IMG/VR virus record: IMGVR_UViG_3300037010_001838 | From: a virus | Taxonomy: Duplodnaviria; Caudoviricetes | Length of the DNA: 64,000 bases | Reading direction: 5' to 3' (one strand) | Part shown: positions 22,328 to 63,767 of the stretch, piece by piece | Layout of the letters: each line of letters begins with the position of its first letter | How positions within the stretch are numbered: position 1 is the stretch's first letter | Made by a program: the position numbers and the translations under genes | The notes under the pieces: generated by a model | The model's input: the letters and a program-made list of their open reading frames with translations, nothing else | Database searches by the model: none | Told to the model about the DNA's origin: nothing

Positions 22328-22540
22328 TTAATTTGAAACTGTTAGAAGAGCGGGGCACCACTCAGGTGCTCTATCTCTTTCATACCAACAATTTGAAATT
22401 ATTTTATTGTTAACTCCACAGACTACTTGTATTCCTCGGTCATATTCTTCTGGCGTATTACAGTAGTAATCAGTTATTAATTGAGTACATCCTTTACAGT
22501 GATATGTAATTGTCATTGATGGTCCAAAATTGTTTTCCAT
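22328..22540 (-). CDS. hypothetical Cys-rich protein
   Basis: Coupled to guaC stop (TAATG). Confidence 0.55.
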   Translation of the reverse strand: MENNFGPSMTITYHCKGCTQLITDYYCNTPEEYDRGIQVVCGVNNKIISNCWYERDRAPEWCPALLTVSN

Positions 22541-24798
22541 TATCTCACCTTTGTTGTTATGTCTTCATACACCCGATTGTGAGTGTTATTCACTCTAATA
22601 AACGTTGCACGTTTTGAAAGTTCCTTTAGTGTTTTACTTCCTGTATATGTACACGTACTCCGAACCCCACCTAGAATATGGTTAATTGTATCTTTAACTG
22701 GTCCTCGATATGGAAGTTCGATTGTTCGTCCTTCACTCGAGCGATATTCAGCCAAACCCCCACTGTGAGCTTCCATTGCTGTAGATGAACTCATCCCGTA
22801 GAATTGGACAAACTTACGCTCTACTTCCAAACACTCAAGAGAAGAACCATCAATATCTTTTATAACTTCGTTAGTTTTATACCACTTCGAACTTACTTCA
22901 CCTCCACCTTCGTCGTGTCCAGCGAACATTCCACCACTCATTACAAAATCAGCGCCACCTGCAAATGCTTTTGCAAAGTCTCCAGGAGTATTACATCCCC
23001 CATCGGAACACAACCTTCCGCCTAATCCATGAACAGCATCAGCACATTCTATAATTGCACTCAATTGGGGAAAACCAATTCCAGACACTAACCTTGTGGT
23101 ACAAACTGAATTGTGAACAATCATGTTGTTTGCAATGAAACTGTGGGTTGGGTGATCAATTTCCAAATCGTAGACGGGAACCTCACACTCTGTTGGGTTT
23201 TCAATTTCAAGTATTTTTATAACCTGATAATGTGAAAGATGTCTTTTTTTGTGAGAGGTCGCCAGAAAACTTCGATATCCATCTTTTCGGGGGTGTTGCA
23301 TAGGATATGAAGACCGTTTCCCGTTGTTTGACATATTTGGGAAACTCCCAAATATATTAAACGTAATCCAGCTGAATAGTTCCATGAGTTGTTGTGACGT
23401 GTTGTTAAAATTAACCTGGCCTTCTTTTGTAATGTGGCCGTCACTATCAACTAATCCATCATACAATCCCCGCAAATATTCTGTGTTGGTGCACATGAAT
23501 TGGTCTGGAAGATGTTTTTCATGGAACTTTCCAAACTGTTGGAAAAATTCTTCCCACTGTTTACTATACAAGGTGATCGTGGTCAACGTTTTCCGTTTAT
23601 TAGAACATACTGGGATTTTACCCGTAACCATCTCAACAGCAGACATTAATTTAACTACATGATGTTGATCTCTTGAGTTTATATACCACTCAACACCTTC
23701 AGAAAAACTTGAAAATCCCCTGCTGTTGGTTCCTTTTGTTTTTCTTGAAGTACCATCTCCAAGAAAAAAACCAAACACATAACCAGTGTTGTAATCAGAT
23801 TTAACAATAGTGTTATAATTATCCAAATGCTCTTCTCGTATAAAATAACTTGAAATATCGATATGAAAACTATCTGGTGTTTCCCAATTAATATTGATGG
23901 GAAGTAAAGCTACATCTTGTCGTATTTCACTCACCGGTTTCCATTTTATTTTTTCCTCTCCCAAACGAGTAGGAACCTCCAGCGCCTTTTTATACCCTTT
24001 GCTTTGTAGTGTTGTAATACTAATAGAATTTAGATCACCTACGTAACAATGATGGTCAGGAGTTAGTCTCAACGGAATGTTGAAGTGATCATGTTTTATC
24101 TGTGTTGTTTTCTTATATCCTGTGGTATAAGCGGATAACACAGTTGCTGGTTCTCCAGTACTCGTAATTATACGATCCCCAGGTTGAACATCTTTGATAT
24201 TTTTATAAACACCACTGGACATTAAAATTCGAGCATCACCCGTTAAACACCCACTGCCTACTCCAACCTTGATGATATCTGCACCAGATAATACTAATTG
24301 TTCTGCCATTTCAGGTGTAACAACGTTACCAACAAGAAGAGTTGTGTTTGGATATTTGTCTCGTAATTTAGTTACAGTAGATACAAAAGTTTCTGTATAC
24401 CCATTAGCAACGTCAACACACACATTTAAAGGAGGTCTGCCAAACATTTCGATGAAGTGTTCAAGCTTATCGAGGTCACTTTGAGACGTTCCAACTGAAT
24501 AAAAAATATATTGTTCAAATGAGGGATTGTTTTTATAAAAATCTACAAGTTGAACTACTGGATAATGTTTATGTAATGCTACCATCATTTTAAATTCAGC
24601 AAATCGTTCCGCCATTTCAAAAGTTCCAACTCCATCCATATTTGACGCTATAATTGGAATACCAGTCCATTGTTGGTGAGAGTATTTGAATGTGAACGAC
24701 CTTTCAAGAGACACGTCTTTGCGTGAAGTTAGTGATGACCTTTTTGGAATAAGTAGCACATCACCAAAATCCAATTTAACATCCTCTACTATTCTCAT
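22540..24798 (-). CDS. guaC: GMP reductase containing an intein
   Basis: KLDFGDVLLIPKRS, IIASNMDGVG, VDVANGY, KVGVGSG|SVCTTR, FAGGADFVMSGGMFAG, FYGMSS. Confidence 0.92.
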   Translation of the reverse strand: MRIVEDVKLDFGDVLLIPKRSSLTSRKDVSLERSFTFKYSHQQWTGIPIIASNMDGVGTFEMAERFAEFKMMVALHKHYPVVQLVDFYKNNPSFEQYIFYSVGTSQSDLDKLEHFIEMFGRPPLNVCVDVANGYTETFVSTVTKLRDKYPNTTLLVGNVVTPEMAEQLVLSGADIIKVGVGSGCLTGDARILMSSGVYKNIKDVQPGDRIITSTGEPATVLSAYTTGYKKTTQIKHDHFNIPLRLTPDHHCYVGDLNSISITTLQSKGYKKALEVPTRLGEEKIKWKPVSEIRQDVALLPININWETPDSFHIDISSYFIREEHLDNYNTIVKSDYNTGYVFGFFLGDGTSRKTKGTNSRGFSSFSEGVEWYINSRDQHHVVKLMSAVEMVTGKIPVCSNKRKTLTTITLYSKQWEEFFQQFGKFHEKHLPDQFMCTNTEYLRGLYDGLVDSDGHITKEGQVNFNNTSQQLMELFSWITFNIFGSFPNMSNNGKRSSYPMQHPRKDGYRSFLATSHKKRHLSHYQVIKILEIENPTECEVPVYDLEIDHPTHSFIANNMIVHNSVCTTRLVSGIGFPQLSAIIECADAVHGLGGRLCSDGGCNTPGDFAKAFAGGADFVMSGGMFAGHDEGGGEVSSKWYKTNEVIKDIDGSSLECLEVERKFVQFYGMSSSTAMEAHSGGLAEYRSSEGRTIELPYRGPVKDTINHILGGVRSTCTYTGSKTLKELSKRATFIRVNNTHNRVYEDITTKVR
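23110..24249 (-). mobile_element. 380-aa intein with LAGLIDADG homing endonuclease
   Basis: Begins CLTGD, ends IVHN followed by Ser; internal FGFFLGDG and LYDGLVDSDG motifs. Confidence 0.92.
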
Positions 24799-27289: not shown

Positions 27290-27318
27290 TTGACTTTTAT
27301 AAATAAGTCATATATACT
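27290..27318 (+). promoter_or_regulatory. tRNA-operon promoter 1
   Basis: TTGACT-17-TATACT, identical 29 nt at 50045 and 63401; contains TATAAATA and TGACTT/AAGTCA inverted repeat. Confidence 0.9.
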
Positions 27319-27354
27319 TATAACACTGAATTAATTACTTAAAGGATTTACAAA

Positions 27355-27450
27355 ATGAACACAAACGGATTAGGTTATTGTCTATCACTCGGGTCTTTAT
27401 CCATATTGGATAAGAGCCAGGTCGCCGTTTGGGGAATTACCAAGATGTAA
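27355..27450 (+). CDS. leader (attenuator) peptide 1, MNTNGLGYCLSLGSLSILDKSQVAVWGITKM
   Basis: AAAGGA SD; 31 codons between promoter and terminator; codons 5-18 are only Gly/Leu/Tyr/Cys/Ser/Ile. Confidence 0.8.
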   Translation: MNTNGLGYCLSLGSLSILDKSQVAVWGITKM

Positions 27451-27469
27451 AGAGAAAAAATCCCAAAAG

Positions 27470-27500
27470 AAAGCCTGGCTCGAAAGACCCAGGCTTTTTT
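27470..27500 (+). terminator. attenuator terminator 1
   Basis: AAAGCCTGG...CCAGGCTTT plus T-tract; 5' arm also pairs with GAGCCAGGT (27414-27422). Confidence 0.9.
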
Positions 27501-27506
27501 GTTGTA

Positions 27507-27526
27507 AACTGTTATTTAAAAATTTG
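27507..27526 (+). promoter_or_regulatory. boxA-like antitermination site 1
   Basis: AACTGTTATTTAAAAATTTG, conserved at 50308 and 63748, resembles rrn boxA TGCTCTTTAACAATTT. Confidence 0.6.
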
Positions 27527-27536
27527 AAATATTTTG

Positions 27537-27655
27537 GGGCATGCGGCGAAGTTGGAGAGTCGCGGCGGACTGACTAGAGAGCATTGGTTTTCCAGTGTTC
27601 TCGACTAAATCCGTTCCCTCGTGGTGAGTAGGTTCGATTCCTACCATGCCCACCA
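27537..27655 (+). tRNA. tRNA-Tyr(GTA) with 33-nt insertion in the anticodon
   Basis: GGGCATG/CATGCCC-A-CCA; GCGGA-CTG|insert 27573-27605|TAAA-TCCGT; long variable arm; GGTTCGATTCC. Confidence 0.8.
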
Positions 27656-28696: not shown

Positions 28697-28780
28697 CCGC
28701 AGGTGGCTTAGGTAAATTGGTACAGCCCCTATCTTCAAACGGTAGTGCTTTTGTGGGTTCGAATCCCTCCCTGCGGACCA
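28697..28780 (+). tRNA. tRNA-Leu(CAA), short variable arm
   Basis: CTATC-TTCAAAC-GGTAG; paralogue of 28510; CCA. Confidence 0.75.
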
Positions 28781-35364: not shown

Positions 35365-35436
35365 GCTCAATTGGCTTAATGGTAAAGCAGGTGCTTCTAA
35401 AACACTTGACCGTCGGTTCGATTCCGACATTGGGCA
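35365..35436 (+). tRNA. amber suppressor tRNA (anticodon CTA)
   Basis: GCTCAAT/ATTGGGC-A; canonical D and T arms; GGTGC-TTCTAAA-ACACT puts CTA at 35397-35399. Confidence 0.75.
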
Positions 35437-35443
35437 CCGAGAA

Positions 35444-36179: not shown

Positions 36180-37056
36180 CAGAACGTTTCATCAGAAACA
36201 ATTTAAAAGATAAAGAATTACGCGCTTGTGCAAAGTAACCAACAGCGATGTTGTGAAAGCGGTAGGTCCTACAACTACCGCGCCCTGTAAGGGGTACAAA
36301 CAAGCAAGCCTGACCTACTCCGAAAGGAGCTGATTATCGCCAACGGTAGTCATATGAGGGAAGTTAGGGGTGTGGAAAGAACGAATGTTTACAAGCCTGC
36401 TCTGCAGGGAACTTGGGCATTTGGAGAGTAACGGGTTGTGCCGACCTCACGCCTACACAAACTAGCCATCTCAAAAGGTAAAGGGTAGTACAGTGGTCCG
36501 AACCCGCAAGTAAGGGCTGTTGTGCAAGTTGAGGGGGTTTTGGTACCTGTAATAGGGTGTCACGATTCCTGAAAACTGGTTGAGTAGTCGGCAGATGAAA
36601 AACATGAGGAGTGTGGTATTTTTATACTCAAAAGGTATGAAATCCACTGGAAACGCACTTCTTGGTAGGTTTAACAATGTTAGGGTTAACAGCCCATATA
36701 AATTTGGATTATATTACATAAAACGCAAAGACGTTTCCAGTGTAAAGTGAAAATGGCTTAATCCTTCAGCCGCAAGGTAATGAAGGCGTCCAAAACTCGC
36801 AAGGTCGAGGATGTTGAAAGAAAGTCGCACGCAGAGAGTTAGCGCTCTTGTACAGCTCGCAAGGTTGGCGGTAGACAGATAATCGAGTAGCTTTACATGT
36901 TGGTGGAAAAGCAACCACTTAAAAAATGCAGTCATGTTGATAGACATAGTTGTGCGAAAGCTGATTATGTGGATAAGAGAAGAACTCTAGCTGTAGCAGG
37001 TGATGAGATAATGTCTCGAAGGTATCAATAGTATAGGTTTAATCTCAACCTTATAC
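36180..37056 (+). ncRNA. large structured RNA, GOLLD-like
   Basis: About 880 nt non-coding, many GNRA-capped hairpins (CTCC-GAAA-GGAG, GCC-GCAA-GGT, CTC-GCAA, TGC-GAAA-GC); terminal hairpin with TAATCTC loop; next to phage tRNAs. Confidence 0.65.
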
Positions 37057-38129: not shown

Positions 38130-39632
38130 GTGAGCAAAGAATTTGTGGATGCCCTTTCTATTACAACCAATGTAGCGCACACGGAAAATGGTGCTGTTGC
38201 ATTTGATACAACCAAATCAGCTATGTTGGATTTGTTTGCACAAGGGGGTGCACTCCGCAATCGTGCTGATGATGAAATTCTTCGTTTGTTTTCAAAAGCT
38301 TATGCAGAAAATGCATTGTTTGCCACTCGTGCTATGTTCTATTTCAGGGACGCTCGTGGTGGTCAAGGTGAACGCGATACATTTAGAAAGCAATTAAAGT
38401 GGTTGATTAACGTTAACCCTGACGCTGTCCGTAAAAACATTAAACTTATTCCATACTTTGGACGTTGGGATGATTTGTATGTGTTATTTGATACAGAACT
38501 TGAAACAGATGCAATTACACTAATCTTTACACAGATTGCCGAAGACACGGCATCTGAACATCCCTCGTTGCTTGCAAAATGGTTGAAAAGTGAAAACGCT
38601 TCTTCAAAAGAAACGAAACGACTTGCAACAAAAACTCGTATAGGTCTTAAATTAAGTTCCAAAGCATATCGCTTGATGTTGAGCACTCTTCGTAAGAAAA
38701 TTAACATCGTTGAACGGTTGGTGTCTGCCAATCAGTGGGATAGTATTGAATACAGTGCCGTTCCTTCTCAAGCTAACTTGTTATATGGGAAAGCTTTCTT
38801 CACGCATGACGCTGAACGCCGTAAGAAATTCTTGGATTCTTTAAAGACTGGCGAAAAGAAAATCAATGCGAGTGTTCTTTTTCCATATGAAATCGTCCAT
38901 AAAGCACTTACGGTGGGCAGGAACACACCACAACACGAACGCCAACTCATAGATGCGTTGTGGGACGCTCTTCCAAACTATATTGGAGATAAACAAGAAA
39001 ATGCTCTTGCTGTAGTTGATGTGTCTGGTTCTATGGCTGGTCTTCCATTGGAAGTTGCTATTTCGGTTGGAATGTATTTGGCTGAACGTAACACTTGTGA
39101 AGCTTATCATAACAAGTTCATTACTTTTAGCTCTACACCTCAACTACTTAAAATTCAGGGAGCTGACCTTGTTGAAAAAATAGCTAATATGAATAGTTCT
39201 GCATGGGAAATGAATACAGATATTCAAGCTGTGTTCCGTTTGATTCTTACTGTTGCCAAACAAAACAAGTTAGCACAATCTGAATTACCACAGAAGTTGT
39301 ATATCATTTCTGATATGGAATTTGATGCCGCTATAAGCAACGCTAGATATTCTTATAAGAATCAATGTCGGGGTGTGGTTGACGAAAAATTTTTCCAAAC
39401 AATTTCTAAAGAATTTAGTGAGTGTGGATATACAATGCCCAATTTGGTGTTTTGGAATGTTGATGCTCGGAACCAACAGTTTCCAATGAGTATGGATGAG
39501 CGTGGTTTTCAAATGGTTAGTGGATGTAGTCCGTCTATCTTTAAGCACACAATAGGTGGAGAATTTATGTCTGCTTATGATTTGATGCTTGATGTTATTA
39601 ACAGTGAACGTTATCAACTCGTTACAATTTAA
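38130..39632 (+). CDS. DUF2828 / TROVE-like vWA domain protein (Ro60-related)
   Basis: TENGA, RDARGGQGER, GRWDDL, AKWLKSE, MIDAS VVDVSGSM, FITFS, ISDMEFD, LVFWNV. Confidence 0.85.
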   Translation: MSKEFVDALSITTNVAHTENGAVAFDTTKSAMLDLFAQGGALRNRADDEILRLFSKAYAENALFATRAMFYFRDARGGQGERDTFRKQLKWLINVNPDAVRKNIKLIPYFGRWDDLYVLFDTELETDAITLIFTQIAEDTASEHPSLLAKWLKSENASSKETKRLATKTRIGLKLSSKAYRLMLSTLRKKINIVERLVSANQWDSIEYSAVPSQANLLYGKAFFTHDAERRKKFLDSLKTGEKKINASVLFPYEIVHKALTVGRNTPQHERQLIDALWDALPNYIGDKQENALAVVDVSGSMAGLPLEVAISVGMYLAERNTCEAYHNKFITFSSTPQLLKIQGADLVEKIANMNSSAWEMNTDIQAVFRLILTVAKQNKLAQSELPQKLYIISDMEFDAAISNARYSYKNQCRGVVDEKFFQTISKEFSECGYTMPNLVFWNVDARNQQFPMSMDERGFQMVSGCSPSIFKHTIGGEFMSAYDLMLDVINSERYQLVTI

Positions 39633-50044: not shown

Positions 50045-50073
50045 TTGACTTTTATAAATAAGTCATATATACT
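50045..50073 (+). promoter_or_regulatory. tRNA-operon promoter 2
   Basis: Identical to 27290-27318 and 63401-63429. Confidence 0.9.
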
Positions 50074-50127
50074 TGTATCAACAGTTGAGCAAAGTGCTCA
50101 ATAAATTTAATTAATGGAGATTTGCAA

Positions 50128-50226
50128 ATGATTTTTACGACTTTCTTTACAGCGTTTACAACCCCTGAGGCATGGCATGCCCCAGAGATGGCTGTGTGCG
50201 CTCTTGAGGAAGGTTGGAAAAACTAA
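50128..50226 (+). CDS. leader (attenuator) peptide 2, MIFTTFFTAFTTPEAWHAPEMAVCALEEGWKN
   Basis: GGAG SD; 32 codons; codons 3-22 are only Phe/Thr/Ala/Pro/Glu/Trp/His/Met. Confidence 0.8.
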   Translation: MIFTTFFTAFTTPEAWHAPEMAVCALEEGWKN

Positions 50227-50244
50227 AAAGTTTCCAGAAATTCT

Positions 50245-50276
50245 AAAAAGGGCGCTCCGAAAAAGCGCCCTTTTTT
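50245..50276 (+). terminator. attenuator terminator 2
   Basis: AAAAAGGGCGCT/AGCGCCCTTTTT; 5' arm also pairs with GCGCTCTT (50198-50205). Confidence 0.9.
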
Positions 50277-50307
50277 ATTGTTTGTTGATTTTGTAGTAAA
50301 TGTTTTA

Positions 50308-50327
50308 AACTGTTCATTAACAATTTG
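50308..50327 (+). promoter_or_regulatory. boxA-like site 2
   Basis: AACTGTTCATTAACAATTTG. Confidence 0.65.
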
Positions 50328-50338
50328 GATTCGTTTGT

Positions 50339-50412
50339 CAGGGTGTGGGAAAGTTTGGTAATCCGCGAGTTTTGGAAACTCGAGACCACTGGTTCAAATC
50401 CAGTCATCCTGA
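50339..50412 (+). tRNA. tRNA-Pro(TGG)
   Basis: CAGGGTG/CATCCTG-A; CGAGT-TTTGGAA-ACTCG. Confidence 0.9.
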
Positions 50413-50440
50413 CAAACGAATTCTAAACAAAAAATATTAT

Positions 50441-50516
50441 CTCTGTGTGGTGCAATCTGGTAGCATAGCTGGTCCGGAGCCAGGCGATCAAGGTTCAAAT
50501 CCTTGCATGGAGACCA
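50441..50516 (+). tRNA. tRNA-Pro(CGG)
   Basis: CTGG-TCCGGAG-CCAG (C33 atypical); CCA. Confidence 0.7.
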
Positions 50517-50523
50517 AACGAAT

Positions 50524-50602
50524 GGGGTTAGGGACTGCTTGGCGTGGTCGCCGCACTTGCAATACGGAAAACAGCTCGGTTCAAATCCGAGTAGCTCCAC
50601 CA
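50524..50602 (+). tRNA. tRNA-Ala(TGC)
   Basis: GGGGTTA/TAGCTCC with G3-U70; CTTGCAA loop; CCA. Confidence 0.9.
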
Positions 50603-50605
50603 AAT

Positions 50606-50653
50606 GGGTGATTCGGGTGGCTAAGGCGGGTTCGATTCCCGTATGCTCCACCA
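50606..50653 (+). tRNA. truncated tRNA (T-arm plus CCA only)
   Basis: GCGGG-TTCGATT-CCCGT-ATGCTCC-ACCA in 48 nt. Confidence 0.45.
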
Positions 50654-50685
50654 AAAGAACTTTTAAATGTTGAAGTTCTTTTAAT

Positions 50686-50744
50686 GGGGGCATGATGGTT
50701 GCTGCCGACGGGCAAGACGAGTTCGATTCTCGTATCGTCCACCA
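50686..50744 (+). tRNA. truncated tRNA lacking D-arm
   Basis: ACGAG-TTCGATT-CTCGT-ATCGTCC-ACCA in 59 nt. Confidence 0.45.
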
Positions 50745-50793
50745 AAGTTTGTAAACCAAAGTTTGTAATTAGAGTGTGCTAAAACTAAAAAAT

Positions 50794-50880
50794 GCACGGG
50801 AAGTCAGATGGATTGGACACCACCCTTTCAAGGTGGCAGGTGAAAACCGTTTGCGGGTTCGAGTCCCGTTCCGTGCTCCA
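50794..50880 (+). tRNA. tRNA-Glu(TTC) with long variable arm
   Basis: CCACC-CTTTCAA-GGTGG; 16-nt variable region; CCA. Confidence 0.85.
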
Positions 50881-50900
50881 ATTTTCACAAGTAAAACAAC

Positions 50901-50972
50901 TTTCAGTATAGTGTAATGGTTAGCACGACCCCGTTGGTGGGTTAGAGTGTGGTTCGATTCCCACCTGAATAT
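50901..50972 (+). pseudogene. degenerate tRNA
   Basis: D-arm GTGT/GCAC and T-arm GTGG-TTCGATT-CCCAC present; anticodon loop and acceptor degraded. Confidence 0.4.
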
Positions 50973-51042
50973 GACAACTAGAGAGCAAGCTACTCTTTCA
51001 TTGGTGGTCTGATCAACTAAGATGACAAGTGAAACGATTAAC

Positions 51043-51120
51043 GTAACTGTAGCTCCAATCACGCAGAGCATTTGTCTAAAAAGCAAAGTGTTGCGGGTCC
51101 GAATCCTACTGGTTACACCA
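51043..51120 (+). tRNA. tRNA-Phe(AAA)
   Basis: GTAACTG/TGGTTAC-A-CCA; GCTC/GAGC; TTTGT-CTAAAAA-GCAAA. Confidence 0.75.
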
Positions 51121-51149
51121 AACGAATTTACTTACAAATTCGTTATAAA

Positions 51150-51225
51150 GCCGCTATAGCAAAGATGGTCTATGCGACGGACTGAAAATCCGAGGATCTC
51201 CGATCGTTACGGAGTGGCGGCGCCA
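51150..51225 (+). tRNA. tRNA-Phe(GAA)
   Basis: CGGA-CTGAAAA-TCCG; atypical T-loop ATCGTTA; CCA. Confidence 0.8.
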
Positions 51226-51230
51226 AACAA

Positions 51231-51356
51231 CGCTCCAACAAGTGCTGTGGGTAAGCCTATCGTTAAAAAACGAGATTGAAATCTCGGCTGAGGTTTCATT
51301 GAGTTTTACAAAACGGTGAAAATTCTAGACAGGGTTCGATTCCCTACGAGTGACCA
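51231..51356 (+). ncRNA. 126-nt tRNA-like RNA ending in ACCA
   Basis: CGCTC/GAGTG terminal stem, AGGG-TTCGATT-CCCT, internal CGAGAT/ATCTCG hairpin. Confidence 0.45.
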
Positions 51357-51490
51357 ACAACGGACACTAGACATTTGACATAGTGTCCACTGAATTAAAT
51401 CTTGGTTTTCTAGTATACTAAGAGTATAATTAACATTATATTTGTAATTTGCGTTTTCGAATAAATATACCACTTGTTGGAAAAATTAAC

Positions 51491-52093
51491 ATGATCAAAA
51501 ATTTTATGTTTTTAATGATGCTGGTTGTTTCAACACATGTTTACGCTCTTAGTTATTCTATTGTAAATTGGAGACTGATATTGTCGGGTGATATCACGAA
51601 AAAAGATTTAACCGAAATGCCAAAATATCTGACAAATCAAATAGATACAGTTGTGTTTGATAGTGTAAATGGAGGAGATGCTGGAACGACTTTAGAGTTG
51701 CTTCCATTATTTGAAGCAAGACCGAGAGTTCATATCGTTTCTGGGTTTTGTGAAAGTTCCTGTGTAATTATGTTTTTAGCCGGAACAGATAGAATATCTT
51801 ATGGTATAATTGGACTCCATTCTGTATATTCGTATGACACAAACAAGATAAACCCCCATCTAAGCCATCTCTTTAATAAGTATGTTGAAAAAAGACTTGG
51901 TTCAAAGTATGACAAGCAGTTATTTTCTTTTGTTTTTAATAAAATGATAGACCACAATGAATTGTTGATTTTTAGCAAAAATGATTTTGGAAAATTGTGT
52001 GGTTCTGATTCTTGTGGGACACCAATCGCAAGAACTGCTGAAGAACTGGGATTGACAACAGATAAACATTTTATGTTAACATCCAACTGGTAA
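51491..52093 (+). CDS. secreted protein with ClpP/crotonase-like motifs
   Basis: Signal peptide; FDSVNGGD, CESSCVIMFLAG, IGLHS. Confidence 0.6.
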   Translation: MIKNFMFLMMLVVSTHVYALSYSIVNWRLILSGDITKKDLTEMPKYLTNQIDTVVFDSVNGGDAGTTLELLPLFEARPRVHIVSGFCESSCVIMFLAGTDRISYGIIGLHSVYSYDTNKINPHLSHLFNKYVEKRLGSKYDKQLFSFVFNKMIDHNELLIFSKNDFGKLCGSDSCGTPIARTAEELGLTTDKHFMLTSNW

Positions 52094-52098
52094 CAAAC

Positions 52099-52172
52099 GC
52101 CGCCTTCGTATAATGGTATTACGCAACCTTTGTAACGTTGATATGTCAGTTCGATTCTGACAGGTGGCTCCA
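52099..52172 (+). tRNA. tRNA-Thr(TGT)
   Basis: TTTGTAA loop; GCCGCCT/AGGTGGC-T-CCA. Confidence 0.9.
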
Positions 52173-52266
52173 AATTGATTGTAAAATTTGACTTGCAAGC
52201 AACCGAGTTGGAATAGCTGGAGTGACTCTGGTAGACGGTTCAATTCCGTATCAATCAATTAACAAT

Positions 52267-52342
52267 GGTGACCATAGTGTAAAGGTAGCATTTCTCGCTG
52301 TGAACGAGGAGGAGTGGGTTCAATTTCCCACTGGTCACCCCA
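52267..52342 (+). tRNA. tRNA-His(GTG)
   Basis: 8-bp acceptor with G-1, CTGTGAA loop, CCA. Confidence 0.9.
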
Positions 52343-52386
52343 ATTCAATCGTTGACTTTTTATAATAAATCTGTAAAATTAGTTTT

Positions 52387-52442
52387 AAGACACTAACAGC
52401 AACTCAAAAAACTTTCTATGCTAAGGAAACTAAACGTGTCTT
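52387..52442 (+). ncRNA. AAGACAC-TAACAGCAA...GTGTCTT motif, copy 2
   Basis: Same ends as 38051-38112 with a different loop. Confidence 0.55.
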
Positions 52443-52567
52443 GTTCACAAAAACAGTAACTAAAACAAGGAGGGTAGGGAAATGCTAAACGCAAACAAAA
52501 ATGGAAGAAACACTTCGGTCTAAGACAAGTAGGAATAACTACCGACAACAAACCAGTTATCAGTGGT

Positions 52568-52804
52568 TTGGATGTATTCAAACACACAGAAACTCTTGGT
52601 ATCCCTCTCGAATTTATAATTGACCATATTAAAGAAAACAACTGTGTTGTAAATTGGTTGGAGTTTTTAACTGTGTCGATTGAGCACGGGTGGAACATAA
52701 AATCAACAATAACAAAAATTGAATATGCTCTCGTTGATGTATACGATAAGGTGTATGCAAACGAAGTAATTTCAAGGTTAAAACAACTAATCGCTTTCAA
52801 TTAG
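52568..52804 (+). CDS. hypothetical protein (F...T.G.PL motif, AlaRS-like fragment)
   Basis: FKHTETLGIPLEFI; start uncertain, frame opens near 52485. Confidence 0.5.
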   Translation: MDVFKHTETLGIPLEFIIDHIKENNCVVNWLEFLTVSIEHGWNIKSTITKIEYALVDVYDKVYANEVISRLKQLIAFN

Positions 52805-52899
52805 TAAGGAACATTAAATTCAAATTTCCCCTAAACTGGTTTGATAAATATAAAATGGTTTGATAAATAGTGCTACAATATCGACCCAAAGGAAATCAA

Positions 52900-53946
52900 A
52901 TGTCAAAAGTTCTATTTATATTGAAGCGAAAAGAAAATTACGGTGTGGCTAATTTTCATGAACCAAGAGGATTGTCAACGGGTTTACTAAATTCAGCGTC
53001 ATATGTAAGTGATATGTTAAACAGTATTGGAATTTCATCAGAGATTGAAATTGCTGTCGATAATAATTGCATTGACAGGATTGTAACACAACACAAACCT
53101 TCCGTTGTGATTATAGAAGCTTTGTGGGTTGTTCCAGAAAAATTTGAAATTCTTCAAAAACTTCATCCTAGTATTCGTTGGATTGTAAGACTTCACAGTG
53201 AAGTTCCGTTTATGGCTCAAGAAGGAATTGCATTCGCTTGGATTACTGACTATTTAAAATATAAAAACGTTTACGTTGGTGTCAATTCACTAAGAATGGT
53301 TAAAAGTTTAATAAACCTTCATTTGAATAGTGAGGGGGCTGAAGATAAGTTTTTGTTTATGCCAAACTATTATCCAATTTTAAACACAAAAACAAAAGTT
53401 CCTGATTATAAATCAGAGGAACTCAACATTGGATGCTTTGGGGCTGTTAGACCATTGAAAAATCATATACACCAAGCACTAGCAGCAATTCACTTTGCTG
53501 ACAAAGAAAACAAAAAACTTAATTTTCACATTAACGCTAACAGACTTGAAATGAAAGGGGAACCAATTCTCCACAATTTACGAAGAATGTTTGACCGTCA
53601 GAAACAACATGGTCATAAATTAGTCGAACACGCATGGCAACCAAGAGAAGAATTTTTGGAATTGTGCGGGCAAGTGGATGTTGGAATGCAGGTGTCTTTT
53701 AGTGAAACGTTTAATATTGTTGGGGCGGACCTTATAAATCAAGGGATTCCAGTTGTTTCTTCAAGTGAAATTCCATGGGCAGTAGGATTTTTTGGTGCAA
53801 GTCCAGTAGACCAAGATTCCATCGAACGTGGGTTAAGTAGAGCATATCATTGTCCGAGAACGAATAGATATCTCAACTTCTTGAAATTACATTCTTATTC
53901 AGAAAATAGTTTAAGTGTGTGGAAAAAATTATTTTCTAATGTGTAA
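52900..53946 (+). CDS. glycosyltransferase (GT-B, family 4-like)
   Basis: GCFGAVRPLKN, SFSETFNIVGAD, GIPVVSS. Confidence 0.8.
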   Translation: MSKVLFILKRKENYGVANFHEPRGLSTGLLNSASYVSDMLNSIGISSEIEIAVDNNCIDRIVTQHKPSVVIIEALWVVPEKFEILQKLHPSIRWIVRLHSEVPFMAQEGIAFAWITDYLKYKNVYVGVNSLRMVKSLINLHLNSEGAEDKFLFMPNYYPILNTKTKVPDYKSEELNIGCFGAVRPLKNHIHQALAAIHFADKENKKLNFHINANRLEMKGEPILHNLRRMFDRQKQHGHKLVEHAWQPREEFLELCGQVDVGMQVSFSETFNIVGADLINQGIPVVSSSEIPWAVGFFGASPVDQDSIERGLSRAYHCPRTNRYLNFLKLHSYSENSLSVWKKLFSNV

Positions 53947-53980
53947 TTAATTGAATTAACCACGAGGAGATTAAAGAACT

Positions 53981-54349
53981 ATGAAGATTGAAGAGTTAAT
54001 GGAAAGTTTGGTTGTTTGGAAACCAATTGACGGTTGGTCAAACTATGAAGTTTCTAACACAGGACAAGTTCGTTCGACTAAAACAAATAAAGTTTTGGCC
54101 CAAGAAGAACACTACGGTCACGACAAAAAATCTCCGTATATGAGAGTTCACTTGTCACAAAATGGAGTCAAAAAACACCTTAGAGTGAACAGGTTAGTTG
54201 CATATGCTTTTATTGGACCACCACCAGATCGTAATATGCACGTAGACCATAAAGATAATAACACCAGAAATAACAAATCAACAAATCTTCAGTGGCTTAC
54301 TCCTACTGAAAATTTAAAAAAACGTCTAGCACATAAGTCAGAACATTAA
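53981..54349 (+). CDS. NUMOD4-HNH homing endonuclease
   Basis: WKPIDGWSNYEVSNTGQVRS; HVDHKDNNTRNNKSTNLQWLT..EN. Confidence 0.9.
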   Translation: MKIEELMESLVVWKPIDGWSNYEVSNTGQVRSTKTNKVLAQEEHYGHDKKSPYMRVHLSQNGVKKHLRVNRLVAYAFIGPPPDRNMHVDHKDNNTRNNKSTNLQWLTPTENLKKRLAHKSEH

Positions 54350-54375
54350 TTACAAAAACTGTTTCTATTTCAAAA

Positions 54376-54450
54376 GCCACATAAGCAGAACTGGTGATGC
54401 GCCTGTTTCGTAATCAGGAAATACGTTGGGTTCAAGTCCCCGATGTGGCA
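54376..54450 (+). tRNA. tRNA-Thr(CGT)
   Basis: CCTG-T-TTCGTAA-T-CAGG; GCCACAT/ATGTGGC. Confidence 0.85.
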
Positions 54451-54459
54451 CCTACACAA

Positions 54460-54760
54460 AAATAACTAAACCTTCTATATCTATAAATTTATCGATAATA
54501 GCGTCTTCAATTAAAGATTTGTTTCCAGAAAAGGTGTCTCATCAAATAGTTGGTCTTGAACTTATTGGTGATGAATTAATCGCAACGCTTGAAACTTTGG
54601 ATACACCAGAAGGAATTGAAGTCAAAACACTGATTGAGAATGTCCCCACTGAATGTCGACCAACCGGAGTTGGGTATATCGTTGATGACCCAACAGGACA
54701 ATCATCTGGAATAATTAAAGAAGAATTTAGGATTTACGAATGTTGCGATAGTTCCAAAAG
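54460..54760 (+). pseudogene. prohead protease (T4 gp21-like) fragment
   Basis: KVSHQIVGLELIGDELIATLETLDTPEG..VK.LI...RPTGVG resembles gp21 core; no clear start. Confidence 0.45.
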
Positions 54761-54766
54761 ATTAAT

Positions 54767-54840
54767 AGACCACAAGTGTTACGGTAGCACAGCGGCCTCC
54801 AAAGCCGCGGGTCGGGGTTCGACTCCCTGGTGGTCTGCCA
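54767..54840 (+). tRNA. tRNA-Trp(CCA)
   Basis: GCGGC-CTCCAAA-GCCGC; G73 CCA. Confidence 0.92.
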
Positions 54841-54918
54841 AATGGATGAAAATGTATAGATTTGAAGTGTACGTGATAGATCGAGAAGGTTTTGGTCCAC
54901 ATGGTGCAAGATAATATT

Positions 54919-54995
54919 GGTGATGTGGGTGAAAAGGTAATACCGCCTTGCTCATAACGAGGAACATTCCAGTTCGATTCTGGACATCACCACCA
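54919..54995 (+). tRNA. tRNA-Met(CAT), elongator (or Ile2)
   Basis: CCTTG-CTCATAA-CGAGG; paired 1-72; CCA. Confidence 0.85.
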
Positions 54996-55028
54996 AGACA
55001 TTAAAACGCAAAAAACGTGTCTTGTTGC

Positions 55029-55102
55029 GCCCTTATAGTATATTGGTATTACTCTTCTCTGGTATAGAAGGAAATGCAGTTCAATTCTGCATGAGGGCAC
55101 CA
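55029..55102 (+). tRNA. tRNA-Thr(GGT)
   Basis: CTTCT-CTGGTAT-AGAAG; CCA. Confidence 0.88.
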
Positions 55103-55129
55103 TAAATAATAAAAACTGGAGAATCTAAC

Positions 55130-55366
55130 ATGAAAATTCGTGATTTCTTAAATGAAACTGTTTACAATTTAAATAAAACTGATGATATAGATAAAGGAAA
55201 TATTGATCCAGAGAAATATTATGTGTTTATCAGAACTGTTGACCCAACACTTGTCGGACCTTTTAACACATCAAGTGAAGCACATAAATACATGAATGGA
55301 GAGTATGTTACTGATCGTGTAGAAAAGATCGTTGTAAGTGGAACTGAAGCAAAAAGATTATTTTAA
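55130..55366 (+). CDS. hypothetical protein with MKIRDFLNE N-terminus
   Basis: GGAG SD, ATAAATA upstream. Confidence 0.65.
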   Translation: MKIRDFLNETVYNLNKTDDIDKGNIDPEKYYVFIRTVDPTLVGPFNTSSEAHKYMNGEYVTDRVEKIVVSGTEAKRLF

Positions 55367-55395
55367 ACGAATCCAACTTGTTTGTTGATATTAGT

Positions 55396-55510
55396 GTTGT
55401 TGTATATCAGTTGGTTAGAGATAACGTCTGCTCGAGGGTGTAGCCCCCGGTAAAGGACCGCAACGCTGCAGATAAAACGTTCGCCGATGGTTCGAGTCCA
55501 TCCAACAACA
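55396..55510 (+). tRNA. tRNA with about 42-nt insertion in the anticodon loop (CTG|TAAA gives GTA; isotype uncertain)
   Basis: GTTGTTG/CAACAAC-A; AACGT/ACGTT stem; GATGG-TTCGAGT-CCATC; insert 55431-55472. Confidence 0.7.
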
Positions 55511-55519
55511 CTAGATTTT

Positions 55520-55593
55520 GGGGCTGTAGTATAAAGGGATTACGGAAGCTTTGCAAGCTTTTTATCGGGGTTCGATTCCCCGCAGTTCCACCA
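55520..55593 (+). tRNA. tRNA-Ala(TGC)
   Basis: GGGGCTG/CAGTTCC-A-CCA with G3-U70; TTTGCAA loop. Confidence 0.9.
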
Positions 55594-55742
55594 AATTTTA
55601 CAATACAGGAAAGTAACGGAACCGAGAGCCTGTATCTCTCCGACGTTCCAGCCTTTTAATTCAGTTGTCTTCAAATTTAACATCTGGTATAATCTCTTAT
55701 AATAAATACTTTACAAATATAACTATAATGGAGAACAATATT

Positions 55743-56096
55743 ATGTCAATAAAAGAACTTGTAGCAATAAGTGATACACCATCAAAGATAGAAAAGGTGG
55801 AAAAGATATCTTCTGACATTTTAATAATTGTTCGAGATATGATAGCAACTATGGAACACCATAACCTCAAATATATTACAGCTCCAGACATTGGTGTTAA
55901 CCAACAAATTATCGCAGTTGATGTTACAGATCACGAACTTGGTATTTTAATAGCAGTAAATCCTGAAGTTGTGTACGATGAAGATGAGGTGTTAATTGTT
56001 GAATATGTTGATTTGTCAGGTCAAGTACAATCATCAGTATTCCACAAAAAACTCGCTAGTTTTATTCGCCACGCGTTATATGAAATTGGGGTATAA
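55743..56096 (+). CDS. peptide deformylase-like protein, catalytic motifs degenerate
   Basis: DMIATM, APDIGVNQQI, VNPEV, VEYVDLSG present; EGCLS absent, HExxH replaced by HALYE. Confidence 0.6.
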   Translation: MSIKELVAISDTPSKIEKVEKISSDILIIVRDMIATMEHHNLKYITAPDIGVNQQIIAVDVTDHELGILIAVNPEVVYDEDEVLIVEYVDLSGQVQSSVFHKKLASFIRHALYEIGV

Positions 56097-56098
56097 CA

Positions 56099-56359
56099 AT
56101 GTTGAAAGTAGCTTTTTTACAAACATGGAAACGTCACAGCTTTGAATTCGTTTTATTAATGATAATATCTGTCCTTTCTTTGAAATTCATTTTCTTGGAA
56201 ATTGACTGTACTAAAGGAATTACTACAGCGGAATTGTTGATAGCAGGGTTTTTTTGGTTAGTAACTGTATTATATCCCATATTGTCGTTTTTAACTTTTT
56301 ATTTTCAAGCTAAAATAGATCGATTACAAGAGGAGATTGACGAAAATGGCAAAGTTTGA
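56099..56359 (+). CDS. small membrane protein
   Basis: Two hydrophobic segments. Confidence 0.6.
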   Translation: MLKVAFLQTWKRHSFEFVLLMIISVLSLKFIFLEIDCTKGITTAELLIAGFFWLVTVLYPILSFLTFYFQAKIDRLQEEIDENGKV

Positions 56360-57218
56360 GTGGAGTGAAGTTTTTACTTCAATAGAAGGTGAAGGACCTT
56401 ATGCTGGTGTACCAACAGCATATATCCGATTCACAAAGTGCAACTTTATGTGTAAAGGTTTTAATAATCCAACCCACATAGATACCGAAACAAACATAGG
56501 GTTAGGATTTGACCCCACGAAATTTAAAACATTAAAAGAACTACCACCAATTACTCTTGGGTGTGATAGCATTTATGCTTGGGACAATCGTTTTGCTCAT
56601 TTGTGGCAGTCTGGAAATGAGGAACAATTAATTGATGCTGTATTAGATACTATTCCCCACAAATCTTGGGTTCATCCTGTAACTGGACAACCAGTCATCT
56701 TGAGTTTAACAGGTGGAGAACCAACTCTCCGTCAAAAACAACTTTCTGCTTTGTTAAATCATCCAAAGATGGACGATTGTAAACATCTATTAATTGAAAC
56801 AAATTGTTCAGTTCCTATACGTGATGATTTCATTAATTTACTAAATTCGTGGTGGAAACCTGGACGAAAGATCACATTTGCCAATTCACCAAAACTCCGG
56901 GCAAGTGGAGAAAAATGGGAAGATGCGATTAAACCAGAGGTCGCGTTAGCGCAACAAAGAGTAAAGCGTGCTGAACAATATTTTAAATTTGTGTGTGATG
57001 CAAATGCAGAAGATTTTGATGAAGTTGAACGAGCGATGAAAGTTTATTGGGATGCTGGTGTTGTTCAACTAAATAATGTTCTAATTATGCCAACCGCGTG
57101 TACTGAAGAGCAACAAACAAACATAGCGGCGACTGTTGCTAATATGTGTATTGAAAAAGGGTATACATTCTGTTATAGAGTGCATGTTCCTGTATTTAAG
57201 AACGCAATTGGAACTTAA
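56346..57218 (+). CDS. queE: 7-carboxy-7-deazaguanine synthase (radical SAM)
   Basis: EVFTSIEGEG..AGVPTAYIRFTKCNFMC...CDS, LTGGEP, IETNC, SPKL. Confidence 0.85.
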   Translation: MAKFEWSEVFTSIEGEGPYAGVPTAYIRFTKCNFMCKGFNNPTHIDTETNIGLGFDPTKFKTLKELPPITLGCDSIYAWDNRFAHLWQSGNEEQLIDAVLDTIPHKSWVHPVTGQPVILSLTGGEPTLRQKQLSALLNHPKMDDCKHLLIETNCSVPIRDDFINLLNSWWKPGRKITFANSPKLRASGEKWEDAIKPEVALAQQRVKRAEQYFKFVCDANAEDFDEVERAMKVYWDAGVVQLNNVLIMPTACTEEQQTNIAATVANMCIEKGYTFCYRVHVPVFKNAIGT

Positions 57219-57331
57219 ATGAGTGACTTATATGAAGTGTCCTGATACTAACCATCAGGCTTCCTTCTGTAGTATTGATTTATGTTGGTATTGATATTTT
57301 ACGAAACAACTCACACAAATATAGGTGAAAT

Positions 57332-58294
57332 GTGTCTCTTTCAAATGTTAAGATTTTCGCTGGAAATTCAAATATTGAATTCGCCACAAAGATAGCAAGT
57401 AGGATGGGGTTAGCACTCGGTAAGGCTAAAGTAAGTAAGTTCAAAGACGGTGAAACATCTGTTGAAATTGAAGAGTCGGTTAGAGGAAGTGTTGTATTTG
57501 TTATTCAGTCAACGTGCAATCCTGTTAACGACAATTTAATGGAATTATTGACAATGACAGACGCATTAAGAAGAGCTGCTGCAAAACGCATTATTGCAGT
57601 TGTTCCTTATTATGGATATTCCAGACAAGATAGGCGTCCAGGATTTAGCCGTGGACCAATTACTTCCCGTCTTGTAGCAGATGTGATTCAAGCAGCTGGT
57701 ATTGACCATTTAGTATCGGTTGATATTCATTCTCTTCAACAACAAGGGTTTTTTACGATTCCCTTTACTAACATTTCCGCTTCCGTTGAATTCATTAAAG
57801 ATATCAGAATGATGTATCGTAAAGAAAAAGAAGAAAAAACACTTATGGTTGTTTCTCCTGATATCGGTGGAGTATTACGTTCTAGACAAATTGCAGAACA
57901 GTTAAACGGTGACACTCAATTAGCTATTGTGGATAAACGTCGCCCACGAGCTGGTGAATCAGAAGTTATGAACATCATCGGTGACGTAGAGGGAAAAGTT
58001 TGTATTATGGTTGATGATATTGTAGATACAGCTGGAACTTTATGTAAGGCTGCGAAATCTTTAAAGGACCATGGTGCTCTTAAAGTTGTTGCTTATGCCA
58101 CTCACCCTGTATTATCAGATAATGCTTACGAGAATTTAACTCATTCAGTGTTAGACGAATTAGTAGTAACAGATACAATTCCACTAATAGGCAATGTTCC
58201 AAATAACATCAGACAATTATCAATTAGTGATTTGGTTGCAGAAACTATACGAAGAATGAGGTCCAAGCAGTCTGTTAGTCAAATATATGTTTAA
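57332..58294 (+). CDS. prs: ribose-phosphate pyrophosphokinase
   Basis: FKDGETSVEI, YGYSRQDRR, DIHS, VSPDIGGV, VDDIVDTAGTL, THPVLS. Confidence 0.96.
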   Translation: MSLSNVKIFAGNSNIEFATKIASRMGLALGKAKVSKFKDGETSVEIEESVRGSVVFVIQSTCNPVNDNLMELLTMTDALRRAAAKRIIAVVPYYGYSRQDRRPGFSRGPITSRLVADVIQAAGIDHLVSVDIHSLQQQGFFTIPFTNISASVEFIKDIRMMYRKEKEEKTLMVVSPDIGGVLRSRQIAEQLNGDTQLAIVDKRRPRAGESEVMNIIGDVEGKVCIMVDDIVDTAGTLCKAAKSLKDHGALKVVAYATHPVLSDNAYENLTHSVLDELVVTDTIPLIGNVPNNIRQLSISDLVAETIRRMRSKQSVSQIYV

Positions 58295-63400: not shown

Positions 63401-63429
63401 TTGACTTTTATAAATAAGTCATATATACT
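63401..63429 (+). promoter_or_regulatory. tRNA-operon promoter 3
   Basis: Identical 29 nt to 27290 and 50045; further shares TGTATCAACAGTTGAGCAAAGTGCT with copy 2. Confidence 0.9.
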
Positions 63430-63587
63430 TGTATCAACAGTTGAGCAAAGTGCTTAACTAAATAGTTAGGTGTTGAAAGCTAGGACGTCCCGGTACTAAC
63501 AAAACATAGAAATATGTGGGTGCGTAGAAGCGTATATTAAGCAGACGATAAAGTAGTAAACACCATTTAATTTAAGGAGCTTTACAA

Positions 63588-63683
63588 ATGTTCGTAACCA
63601 GACAACAACAGAGTATTAGTATCATTCGCCGACGCCAAGTGCGTCGCGACAGTGATATTATTATGTCTGGAGGCTGGGTATAG
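63588..63683 (+). CDS. leader (attenuator) peptide 3, MFVTRQQQSISIIRRRQVRRDSDIIMSGGWV
   Basis: AAGGAG SD; 31 codons; codons 5-25 are only Arg/Gln/Ser/Ile/Val/Asp. Confidence 0.8.
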   Translation: MFVTRQQQSISIIRRRQVRRDSDIIMSGGWV

Positions 63684-63705
63684 CATAAAGCTAAATTCTT
63701 AAAAA

Positions 63706-63744
63706 GAAAAACCCAGTTTCCAAAAGAGACTGGGTTTTTCGTTT
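63706..63744 (+). terminator. attenuator terminator 3
   Basis: GAAAAACCCAGTTTC/GAGACTGGGTTTTTC; 5' arm also pairs with TGGAGGCTGGGT (63668-63679). Confidence 0.9.
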
Positions 63745-63747
63745 TAC

Positions 63748-63767
63748 AACTGTTCATTAAAAATTTG
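63748..63767 (+). promoter_or_regulatory. boxA-like site 3
   Basis: AACTGTTCATTAAAAATTTG. Confidence 0.65.

Follow-up and report, generated by a model that had tools for sequence, protein, structure and literature searches.

In the 64,000-nucleotide (nt) stretch of phage DNA analysed here (the window; IMG/VR record IMGVR_UViG_3300037010_001838, Duplodnaviria, Caudoviricetes), a short open reading frame (ORF) that we call leader 2 stands ahead of a block of transfer RNA (tRNA) genes, array 2 (50339-55593), and twenty of its consecutive codons specify only amino acids whose tRNAs the array encodes. Leader 2 is probably a functional attenuator gating this array, multivalent and ribosome-mediated in the style of the trp and ilv leaders. 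This reading rests on sequence, folding and comparative evidence; that the ORF is translated, that ribosomes stall on it, that polymerase then reads through and Nus factors are recruited, and what the physiological trigger is, we infer from that evidence. An original prediction, made without database searches, had already taken leader 2 for an attenuator listing the isotypes of its own array, and the proposal is now supported by the sequence elements, by predicted folding, by paralogous units and by three further lineages. The nearest record to the window is a 178.8-kilobase (kb) IMG/VR contig, estimated to be 52% complete, from an uncultured giant phage, and the sequencing runs listed for DNA matching the window were DNA data sets from microbial mat and sediment, with no RNA run among them. 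Features described below lie on the plus strand of the window unless stated otherwise.

The control region (50045-50338) runs from promoter to hairpin, Shine-Dalgarno sequence and ORF, terminator and boxA-like motif, with the first tRNA gene following at 50339. As in leader-peptide attenuators, a short ORF with its own ribosome-binding site comes straight after a promoter, this ORF is enriched in codons tied to the regulated genes (20 of 20 consecutive), and an intrinsic terminator lies between the ORF and the tRNA genes. The promoter is a 30-nt element (50045-50074) of the sigma70 type, with TTGACT (-35) and TATACT (-10) hexamers spanning 50045-50073 around a 17-nt spacer, and exact copies of it occur at 50045, 27290 and 63401, that is, three in the window against none expected. 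Directly past the presumed transcription start lies a 5' hairpin (50084-50102), which leader 3, introduced below, also has. A Shine-Dalgarno GGAG (50116-50119) can be read from the sequence 8 nt upstream of the ATG at 50128, and the block from Shine-Dalgarno through spacer to ATG is alike across all leaders. The ORF itself (50128-50226) comprises 32 codons and a TAA stop; the terminator (50245-50277), with a 12-pair stem, a 7-nt loop and a run of six T, ends 62 nt upstream of the first tRNA-Pro.

Translation of 50128-50226 bore out the earlier statements that codons 3-22 (50134-50193, the sensor run) encode exclusively F, T, A, P, E, W, H and M and that all four Thr codons (ACG, ACT, ACA, ACC) appear among them. 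These eight residues make up 0.33 of the protein encoded in the window, which gives a probability of 0.33^20 = 2.8e-10 for a run of 20, and the next-longest run of the same residues elsewhere in the six frames of the 64-kb window is 9. The match of these eight residues to the eight isotypes of array 2 was likewise borne out by the tRNA calls of ARAGORN and Rfam, which together give 13 confident genes: two for Pro, two for Ala, one for Glu, two for Phe, three for Thr, and one each for His, Trp and Met. ARAGORN reported Pro(TGG), Pro(CGG), Ala(TGC), Glu(TTC), Phe(GAA), Thr(TGT), His(GTG), Thr(CGT), Trp(CCA), Met(CAT), Thr(GGT) and Ala(TGC) in 50339-55593; for Phe(AAA) at 51043-51117, ARAGORN needed a lowered threshold, and the only other detection is an Rfam match of 37.9 bits. 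The anticodons of the array can read 19 of the 21 codons from 2 to 22.

Leader 2 has paralogues, and every leader fits the tRNA block that it precedes but none of the other blocks. Unit 1 (27290-27524) consists of the promoter, leader 1 (ORF 27355-27450), a terminator (27470-27500) and a boxA-like site; its array reads Tyr, Cys, Leu, Gly, Ser, Leu, Ser, Leu, Ile(TAT), and leader 1 contains 14 consecutive codons drawn from exactly the Tyr/Cys/Leu/Gly/Ser/Ile set. Unit 3 (63401-63766) has the same composition (leader 3 ORF 63588-63683, terminator 63707-63739). Its array extends past the end of the window and was therefore read in a near-identical contig; it begins with Gln, Gln, and its isotypes are Gln, Asp, Arg, Val, Ile(GAT) and Ser(GCT). 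Leader 3 holds 21 consecutive matched codons, counting the Ser(GCT) found in cluster 3. The same near-identical contig contains a unit 4, whose leader run Asn-Asn-Val-Asn-Val-Asn-Asn-Lys stands ahead of Val, Asn and three Lys tRNAs. When codons 2-22 of the four leaders were compared with the four clusters, the diagonal of the matrix held 16, 20, 16 and 9 matches of 21 and the off-diagonal cells 0-6, and the probabilities of the runs range across the leaders from 2e-7 to 4e-10. Jointly, the four blocks cover all 20 amino acids.

Some further observations concern units 1 and 3 and their surroundings. In leader 3 the 5' untranslated region (63437-63587) is about 150 nt long and contains predicted hairpins, as against 30-50 nt in leaders 1 and 2. 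The stop codon of leader 3 is TAG (63681-63683) in the window phage and TAA in a relative, and an amber-suppressor-type tRNA with anticodon CTA is encoded at 35365-35438; if this suppressor is active, ribosomes could run through the leader 3 TAG into the unit 3 terminator. An 84-nt element at 28697-28780 is called Lys(CTT) by ARAGORN with a poor anticodon stem, while an alternative register with a 5-pair stem gives CAA (Leu), so that its identity is ambiguous.

The predicted folding of leader 2 supports a switch between two exclusive structures. The full leader folds at -72.4 kcal/mol (z-score -6.0 relative to shuffles); in this intact form region 1, which carries the sensor codons, pairs with region 2 (50191-50216) in a protector (1:2) hairpin (50138-50216; -34.6 kcal/mol), and the terminator (3:4) forms. 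With region 1 removed, region 2 takes the 5' arm of the terminator, the antiterminator (2:3; 50198-50255) being predicted at -21.3 kcal/mol compared with -17.3 kcal/mol for the terminator. The antiterminator comprises two inner helices and an outer helix, 50198-50205/50248-50255, the latter formed by the pairing of GCGCTCTT (50198-50205) with AAGGGCGC (50248-50255) that had been proposed beforehand, and which is indeed present in the minimum-energy fold once region 1 is taken away. In these predictions antiterminator and terminator are mutually exclusive, the former reaching into the 3' portion of the ORF, and the sensor codons are so placed that a ribosome stalled on them would free region 2, again as in leader-peptide attenuators. 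Among leaders 1-4, the full classical 1:2 protector is predicted for leader 2 alone.

Stalled ribosomes were modelled by folding only the RNA 3' of a footprint (A site plus 12 nt), with region 4 untranscribed and pairs across the ribosome forbidden. Under this model the terminator arm of leader 2 is sequestered with the A site at codons 1-20 and free from codon 22 on. The permissive A-site window, within which the antiterminator forms and beyond which it is lost, is codons 1-17 in leader 1, 1-20 in leader 2, 1-25 in leader 3 and 1-18 in leader 4, and the matched codon runs of leaders 1, 3 and 4 stop at its edge. This placement of sensor codons in the permissive window holds, by folding, in leader 2 and in seven other leaders: pooled over the eight, 121 of 140 codons are matched inside the window and 37 of 110, or about background, after it (Fisher 3e-18, a descriptive value only, as the eight leaders are related and not independent).

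Orthologues of leader 2 were found in three further contigs by using neighbouring genes as anchors (identity of the QueE-like protein 76%, 63% and 55%). All three loci present the same promoter family, Shine-Dalgarno sequence, leader and terminator and an array of the same isotypes, and their leaders contain 20-24 consecutive codons of the set. When the window leader is aligned with its most distant orthologue, identity is limited to 10 of 24 sensor columns, yet 23 of the 25 residues at differing columns belong to the set. The terminator stems vary by lineage, region 2 stays complementary to its own terminator arm, and several pairs of the antiterminator show compensatory changes on both sides. 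The peptides have thus diverged while in-set content and complementarity were kept, which argues that selection acts on the codon content and on the switch and not on the peptide. The cassette is absent from cultured phages, in that DNA searches for near and distant matches to the leader and the array (50,697 phage records) gave only tRNA-Pro similarity or chance fragments. A 19-nt core of leader 2 had five matches in metagenome contigs, all in unrelated coding DNA. When 55 loci of more distantly related giant phages were screened for small ORFs matching downstream tRNAs, the result was one architecturally complete unit (promoter, Lys/Tyr/Asp-rich leader, terminator and exact boxA, followed by Tyr, Lys, Lys, Tyr, Asp) and one suggestive 15-codon ORF ahead of Arg, Lys, Pro and His, neither of which was significant by composition alone once corrected for multiple testing. 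Searching the same loci for a boxA pattern gave mostly false positives in coding DNA.

One relative, contig G002 (IMGVR_UViG_3300020048_000168), carries its units in the order 2, 3, 1, unlike the window. On its reverse strand (about 55221-55600 of the reoriented copy) lies a leader-1-like cassette with promoter, leader and terminator, after which a protein-coding gene, and not at once the tRNAs, follows; this cassette is without a boxA-like site, and the contig ends some 700 nt further on.

How far along array 2 the control by leader 2 extends is where an alternative has to be weighed most carefully. The proximal part (50339-51225) encodes Pro(TGG), Pro(CGG), Ala(TGC), Glu(TTC), Phe(AAA) and Phe(GAA) together with degenerate tRNA-like elements to which no isotype can be assigned (50626-50700, 50717-50786 and 50902-50970 among several). 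It is followed by an ORF of 214 amino acids (51449-52093; weak protease-like match to phrog_26024, E 3e-4), by tRNA-Thr(TGT) and tRNA-His(GTG) (52099-52342, ARAGORN) and, directly after the latter, by a promoter-like site, TTGACT-16-TAAAAT (52352-52379), identified by consensus match only. Then come an ORF of 358 amino acids (52870-53946), an HNH homing endonuclease gene inserted in the array (NUMOD4 and HNH_3; 53981-54349) and the distal tRNAs Thr(CGT), Trp(CCA), Met(CAT), Thr(GGT), a Ser(CGA)-like gene with an insert, and Ala(TGC) (54376-55593). Leader 2 might accordingly control only the proximal tRNAs from Pro to His (50339-52342), the distal Thr, Trp, Met, Thr and Ala being transcribed, with the inserted ORFs, from an internal promoter. 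The site right after tRNA-His could drive the distal tRNAs independently, and about 2 kb of protein-coding DNA separates the two parts. The Trp and Met codons of the sensor run argue in the other direction, as their tRNAs lie solely in the distal part, and so does a relative in which a compact array packs 11 tRNAs, Trp and Met included, into 1.4 kb free of ORFs. As the same tRNAs are compact in this relative, the distal ones of the window have probably been separated by insertions, and the 2 kb of ORFs that split array 2, the homing endonuclease included, look like later insertions. A boxA-like site, moreover, suits long-range read-through, and on balance we regard restriction of the control to the proximal tRNAs as unlikely, without dismissing it.

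The E. coli rrn boxA, UGCUCUUUA, is followed by the spacer ACAAUUUA (PMC2724277). Compared with this, the boxA-like site and spacer of leader 2 (50311-50327), 12 nt upstream of tRNA-Pro, share 15 of 17 positions by eye with the E. coli sequence. A boxA-like site lies 12-14 nt upstream of the first tRNA in all three units of the window and the motif occurs in the window only at these three predicted places, although chance occurrences of the degenerate pattern, one mismatch being allowed, are not rare. In relatives the site reads exactly CGCUCUUUA or UGCUCUUUA, the latter in one of them. The original prediction had also invoked processive antitermination over the 5-kb array with its interspersed protein genes, an idea that gains some support from the boxA-like sites, though by sequence resemblance only.

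Regarding the genes within and after array 2, the 358-amino-acid ORF has weak glycosyltransferase-like matches and is conserved in many giant phages. Its relatives (39-54% identity) occur in 54 other IMG/VR contigs and in the Ralstonia phages RsoM2USA and phiRSL1, often adjoining tRNA genes; these two phages, the nearest isolates by this protein, have no tRNAs close to the gene. Inserts of 31-33 nt in or next to the anticodon loop are present in Tyr(GTA) (27537-27655, the first gene of array 1) and in the Ser(CGA)-like gene (55396-55511), and the Lys(TTT) gene of a relative carries a 38-nt insert. Directly 3' of array 2 (55665-58294) are genes for a peptide deformylase-like protein, a QueE-like radical SAM protein and a ribose-phosphate pyrophosphokinase. 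The QueE-like gene belongs to the queuosine pathway of tRNA modification, giving a translation-related neighbourhood after the array.

A second question is what the attenuator senses. Like the attenuators of the trp, his and ilv operons, it could respond to amino-acid starvation through uncharged tRNA, raising tRNA output under scarcity. A stalled ribosome is blind to the difference between a missing and an uncharged tRNA, the architecture is the same as that of amino-acid operon leaders, and some of the leaders have sub-threshold matches to the Thr and His leader families. Extra tRNA, however, gives no relief from a shortage of amino acids, and the codons of leaders 1 and 3 follow the isoacceptors of their blocks and not the amino acids as such. 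Ser is written UCA, UCU and UCC in leader 1, whose block contains Ser-TGA and Ser-AGA, and AGU (three times) in leader 3, with Ser-GCT; Ile is AUA in leader 1 (Ile-TAT) and AUU or AUC (five times) in leader 3 (Ile-GAT); and Val in leader 3 is GUA and GUG (Val-TAC). The joint probability of these codon-family choices is about 9e-5 under the phage's own codon usage. Such matching at the level of isoacceptors makes sense only if tRNA species are both sensed and supplied; it therefore points to tRNA species, rather than amino acids, as what the leaders sense, and a signal of amino-acid starvation appears improbable to us. Weaker still is the proposal that the terminator is a constitutive or leaky stop, setting a low basal level or insulating the array, that the ORF, whether translated or not, has no regulatory effect, and that its composition reflects RNA-structure constraint or shared descent: region 1 of leader 2 is indeed constrained by its pairing with region 2 and all leaders come from one cassette with the same promoter and the same Shine-Dalgarno-ATG block, but we give this very little credence, since the paralogues of that cassette hold four different residue sets that each fit their own tRNAs, orthologues diverge in sequence while keeping the set, matched codons stop where stalling ceases to matter in the model, and the run probabilities are as low as stated above.

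Several points weigh against the view that leader 2 and its paralogues are attenuators of the kind proposed, beyond the internal promoter-like site already discussed. Leader 2 matches none of the Rfam leader families at E values up to 1, and the other leaders remain below threshold: 25.6 and 27.1 bits for leaders 1 and 3 with Thr_leader (RF00506, cutoff 55) and 29.8 bits for leader 4 with His_leader (RF00514, cutoff 49). The match of leader 4 spans only 8 codons. For leaders 1, 3 and 4 an antiterminator is predicted when they are untranslated, so that they have no classical state in which lack of translation leads to termination; according to the folding, termination would in these leaders require a ribosome arriving at the end of the ORF. 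Hybridization of region 2 of the leaders with each other's terminator arms (RNAduplex) indicates a cross-specificity that is moderate only, and the stall model is thermodynamically simplified, its footprint being assumed. The Ser(CGA)-like gene with its insert (55396-55511) belongs to array 2, whereas leader 2 has no Ser codon. Finally, the most distant orthologue is without a boxA-like site.

Returning to leader 2 as an attenuator of its array, the circuit could operate as follows. Host RNA polymerase would start at the sigma70-type promoter (50045-50073), and a ribosome would translate the 32-codon leader as the polymerase nears the terminator (50245-50277). A fast ribosome would cover region 2 once it had reached about codon 22 and until it met the stop, allowing the terminator to form and leaving the array off, and without a ribosome region 2 would be locked in the 1:2 hairpin, with the same outcome. 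Scarcity of the tRNA for any of the 20 sensor codons would stall the ribosome within codons 3-20 and leave region 2 free to pair with the 5' arm of the terminator, so that the polymerase would read through. Once transcribed, the boxA-like site would probably recruit NusB/NusE and confer resistance to termination over the 5-kb array and the inserted ORFs. Because the products are the very tRNAs that read the sensor codons, the circuit would be one of negative feedback, and it might maintain decoding capacity for these codons, for instance when host tRNAs run low during infection or are cleaved by defences that target them. Recent work shows that phages can overcome defences that cleave tRNAs, PARIS (PMC11464382) and retron effectors (PMC11555353), by means of their own tRNAs. 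Depletion of host tRNAs or a tRNA-targeting defence may be the trigger here. We also lean, if only slightly, towards the broader view that these giant phages possess a modular sensor of tRNA demand, in which three to four codon-matched attenuators partition the 20 amino acids and each would gauge the decoding speed of one codon set and induce only the block that restores it, countering the loss of host tRNAs, cleavage by antiphage nucleases that target tRNAs included, without constant overproduction.

Elsewhere in the window, a full-length GOLLD RNA lies between tRNA clusters (36606-37051; Rfam RF02032, 198.8 bits, cutoff 150), and a protein of 500 amino acids with DUF2828 and DUF7788 domains is encoded among solitary tRNAs (38130-39632). 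On the minus strand, an intein bearing Hint and LAGLIDADG signatures splits an IMP dehydrogenase / GMP reductase-like gene (22540-24798).

The purpose and use of the tRNAs that phages carry are under active study, and to our knowledge the regulation of phage tRNA genes is essentially unknown. Our literature searches turned up no account of tRNA genes or phage tRNA arrays under the control of attenuators or leader peptides, and none is mentioned in a survey of phage tRNAs from 2026. A leader peptide that lists its own array would show that tRNA supply is regulated by demand, block by block, that classic attenuation has been turned from sensing amino acids to sensing tRNAs, and that the grouping of isotypes into blocks is functional. 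With host-type signals (sigma70 promoter, intrinsic terminator, boxA-like site) within about 300 nt, the cassette is testable and could be turned into a compact device that senses the capacity to decode chosen codons.

The elements of the phage units have counterparts in well-known systems. The boxA-like site resembles rrn-type boxA/Nus antitermination in placing a boxA-like sequence and an AAUU-containing spacer at the start of a long, largely untranslated and structured RNA operon; in contrast to rrn, the phage site follows an attenuator and precedes tRNAs instead of rRNA, and in the window it has two mismatches to the E. coli consensus. T-boxes, which in Firmicutes control synthetase and amino-acid genes, bind uncharged tRNA directly via a specifier codon, in the absence of translation. 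The choice between terminator and antiterminator that reports the state of a specific tRNA is common to both, whereas the phage leader is an ORF that would be read by a ribosome, and no T-box was found with Rfam. In E. coli, the aminoacyl-tRNA synthetase operon pheST is attenuated via the pheM leader. There, too, a component of translation is controlled by the reading speed of its own cognate codons, although a single amino acid and a protein product are concerned, as opposed to tRNA products and many isotypes. Closest in architecture are the leaders of enterobacterial amino-acid operons (trpL, hisL, pheL and leuL, and the multivalent attenuators of ilvGMEDA and ilvBN, for Ile/Leu/Val, and of thr, for Thr/Ile). 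These share with the phage units a promoter, a short ORF of regulatory codons, mutually exclusive 1:2/2:3/3:4 helices and an intrinsic terminator, the position of the ribosome deciding the fold, and those of ilv and thr also share the sensing of several amino acids by one leader. The phage leaders differ from them in listing up to eight amino acids and specific codon families, in occurring as three to four paralogous copies, and in regulating tRNAs and not biosynthetic enzymes, so that the output feeds back on decoding itself. What is new here is that the regulated genes are the tRNAs reading the sensor codons, that the match resolves isoacceptor families, and that a phage carries a paralogous set of such cassettes; if true, this would be the first class of attenuators whose output is the tRNAs that it senses.

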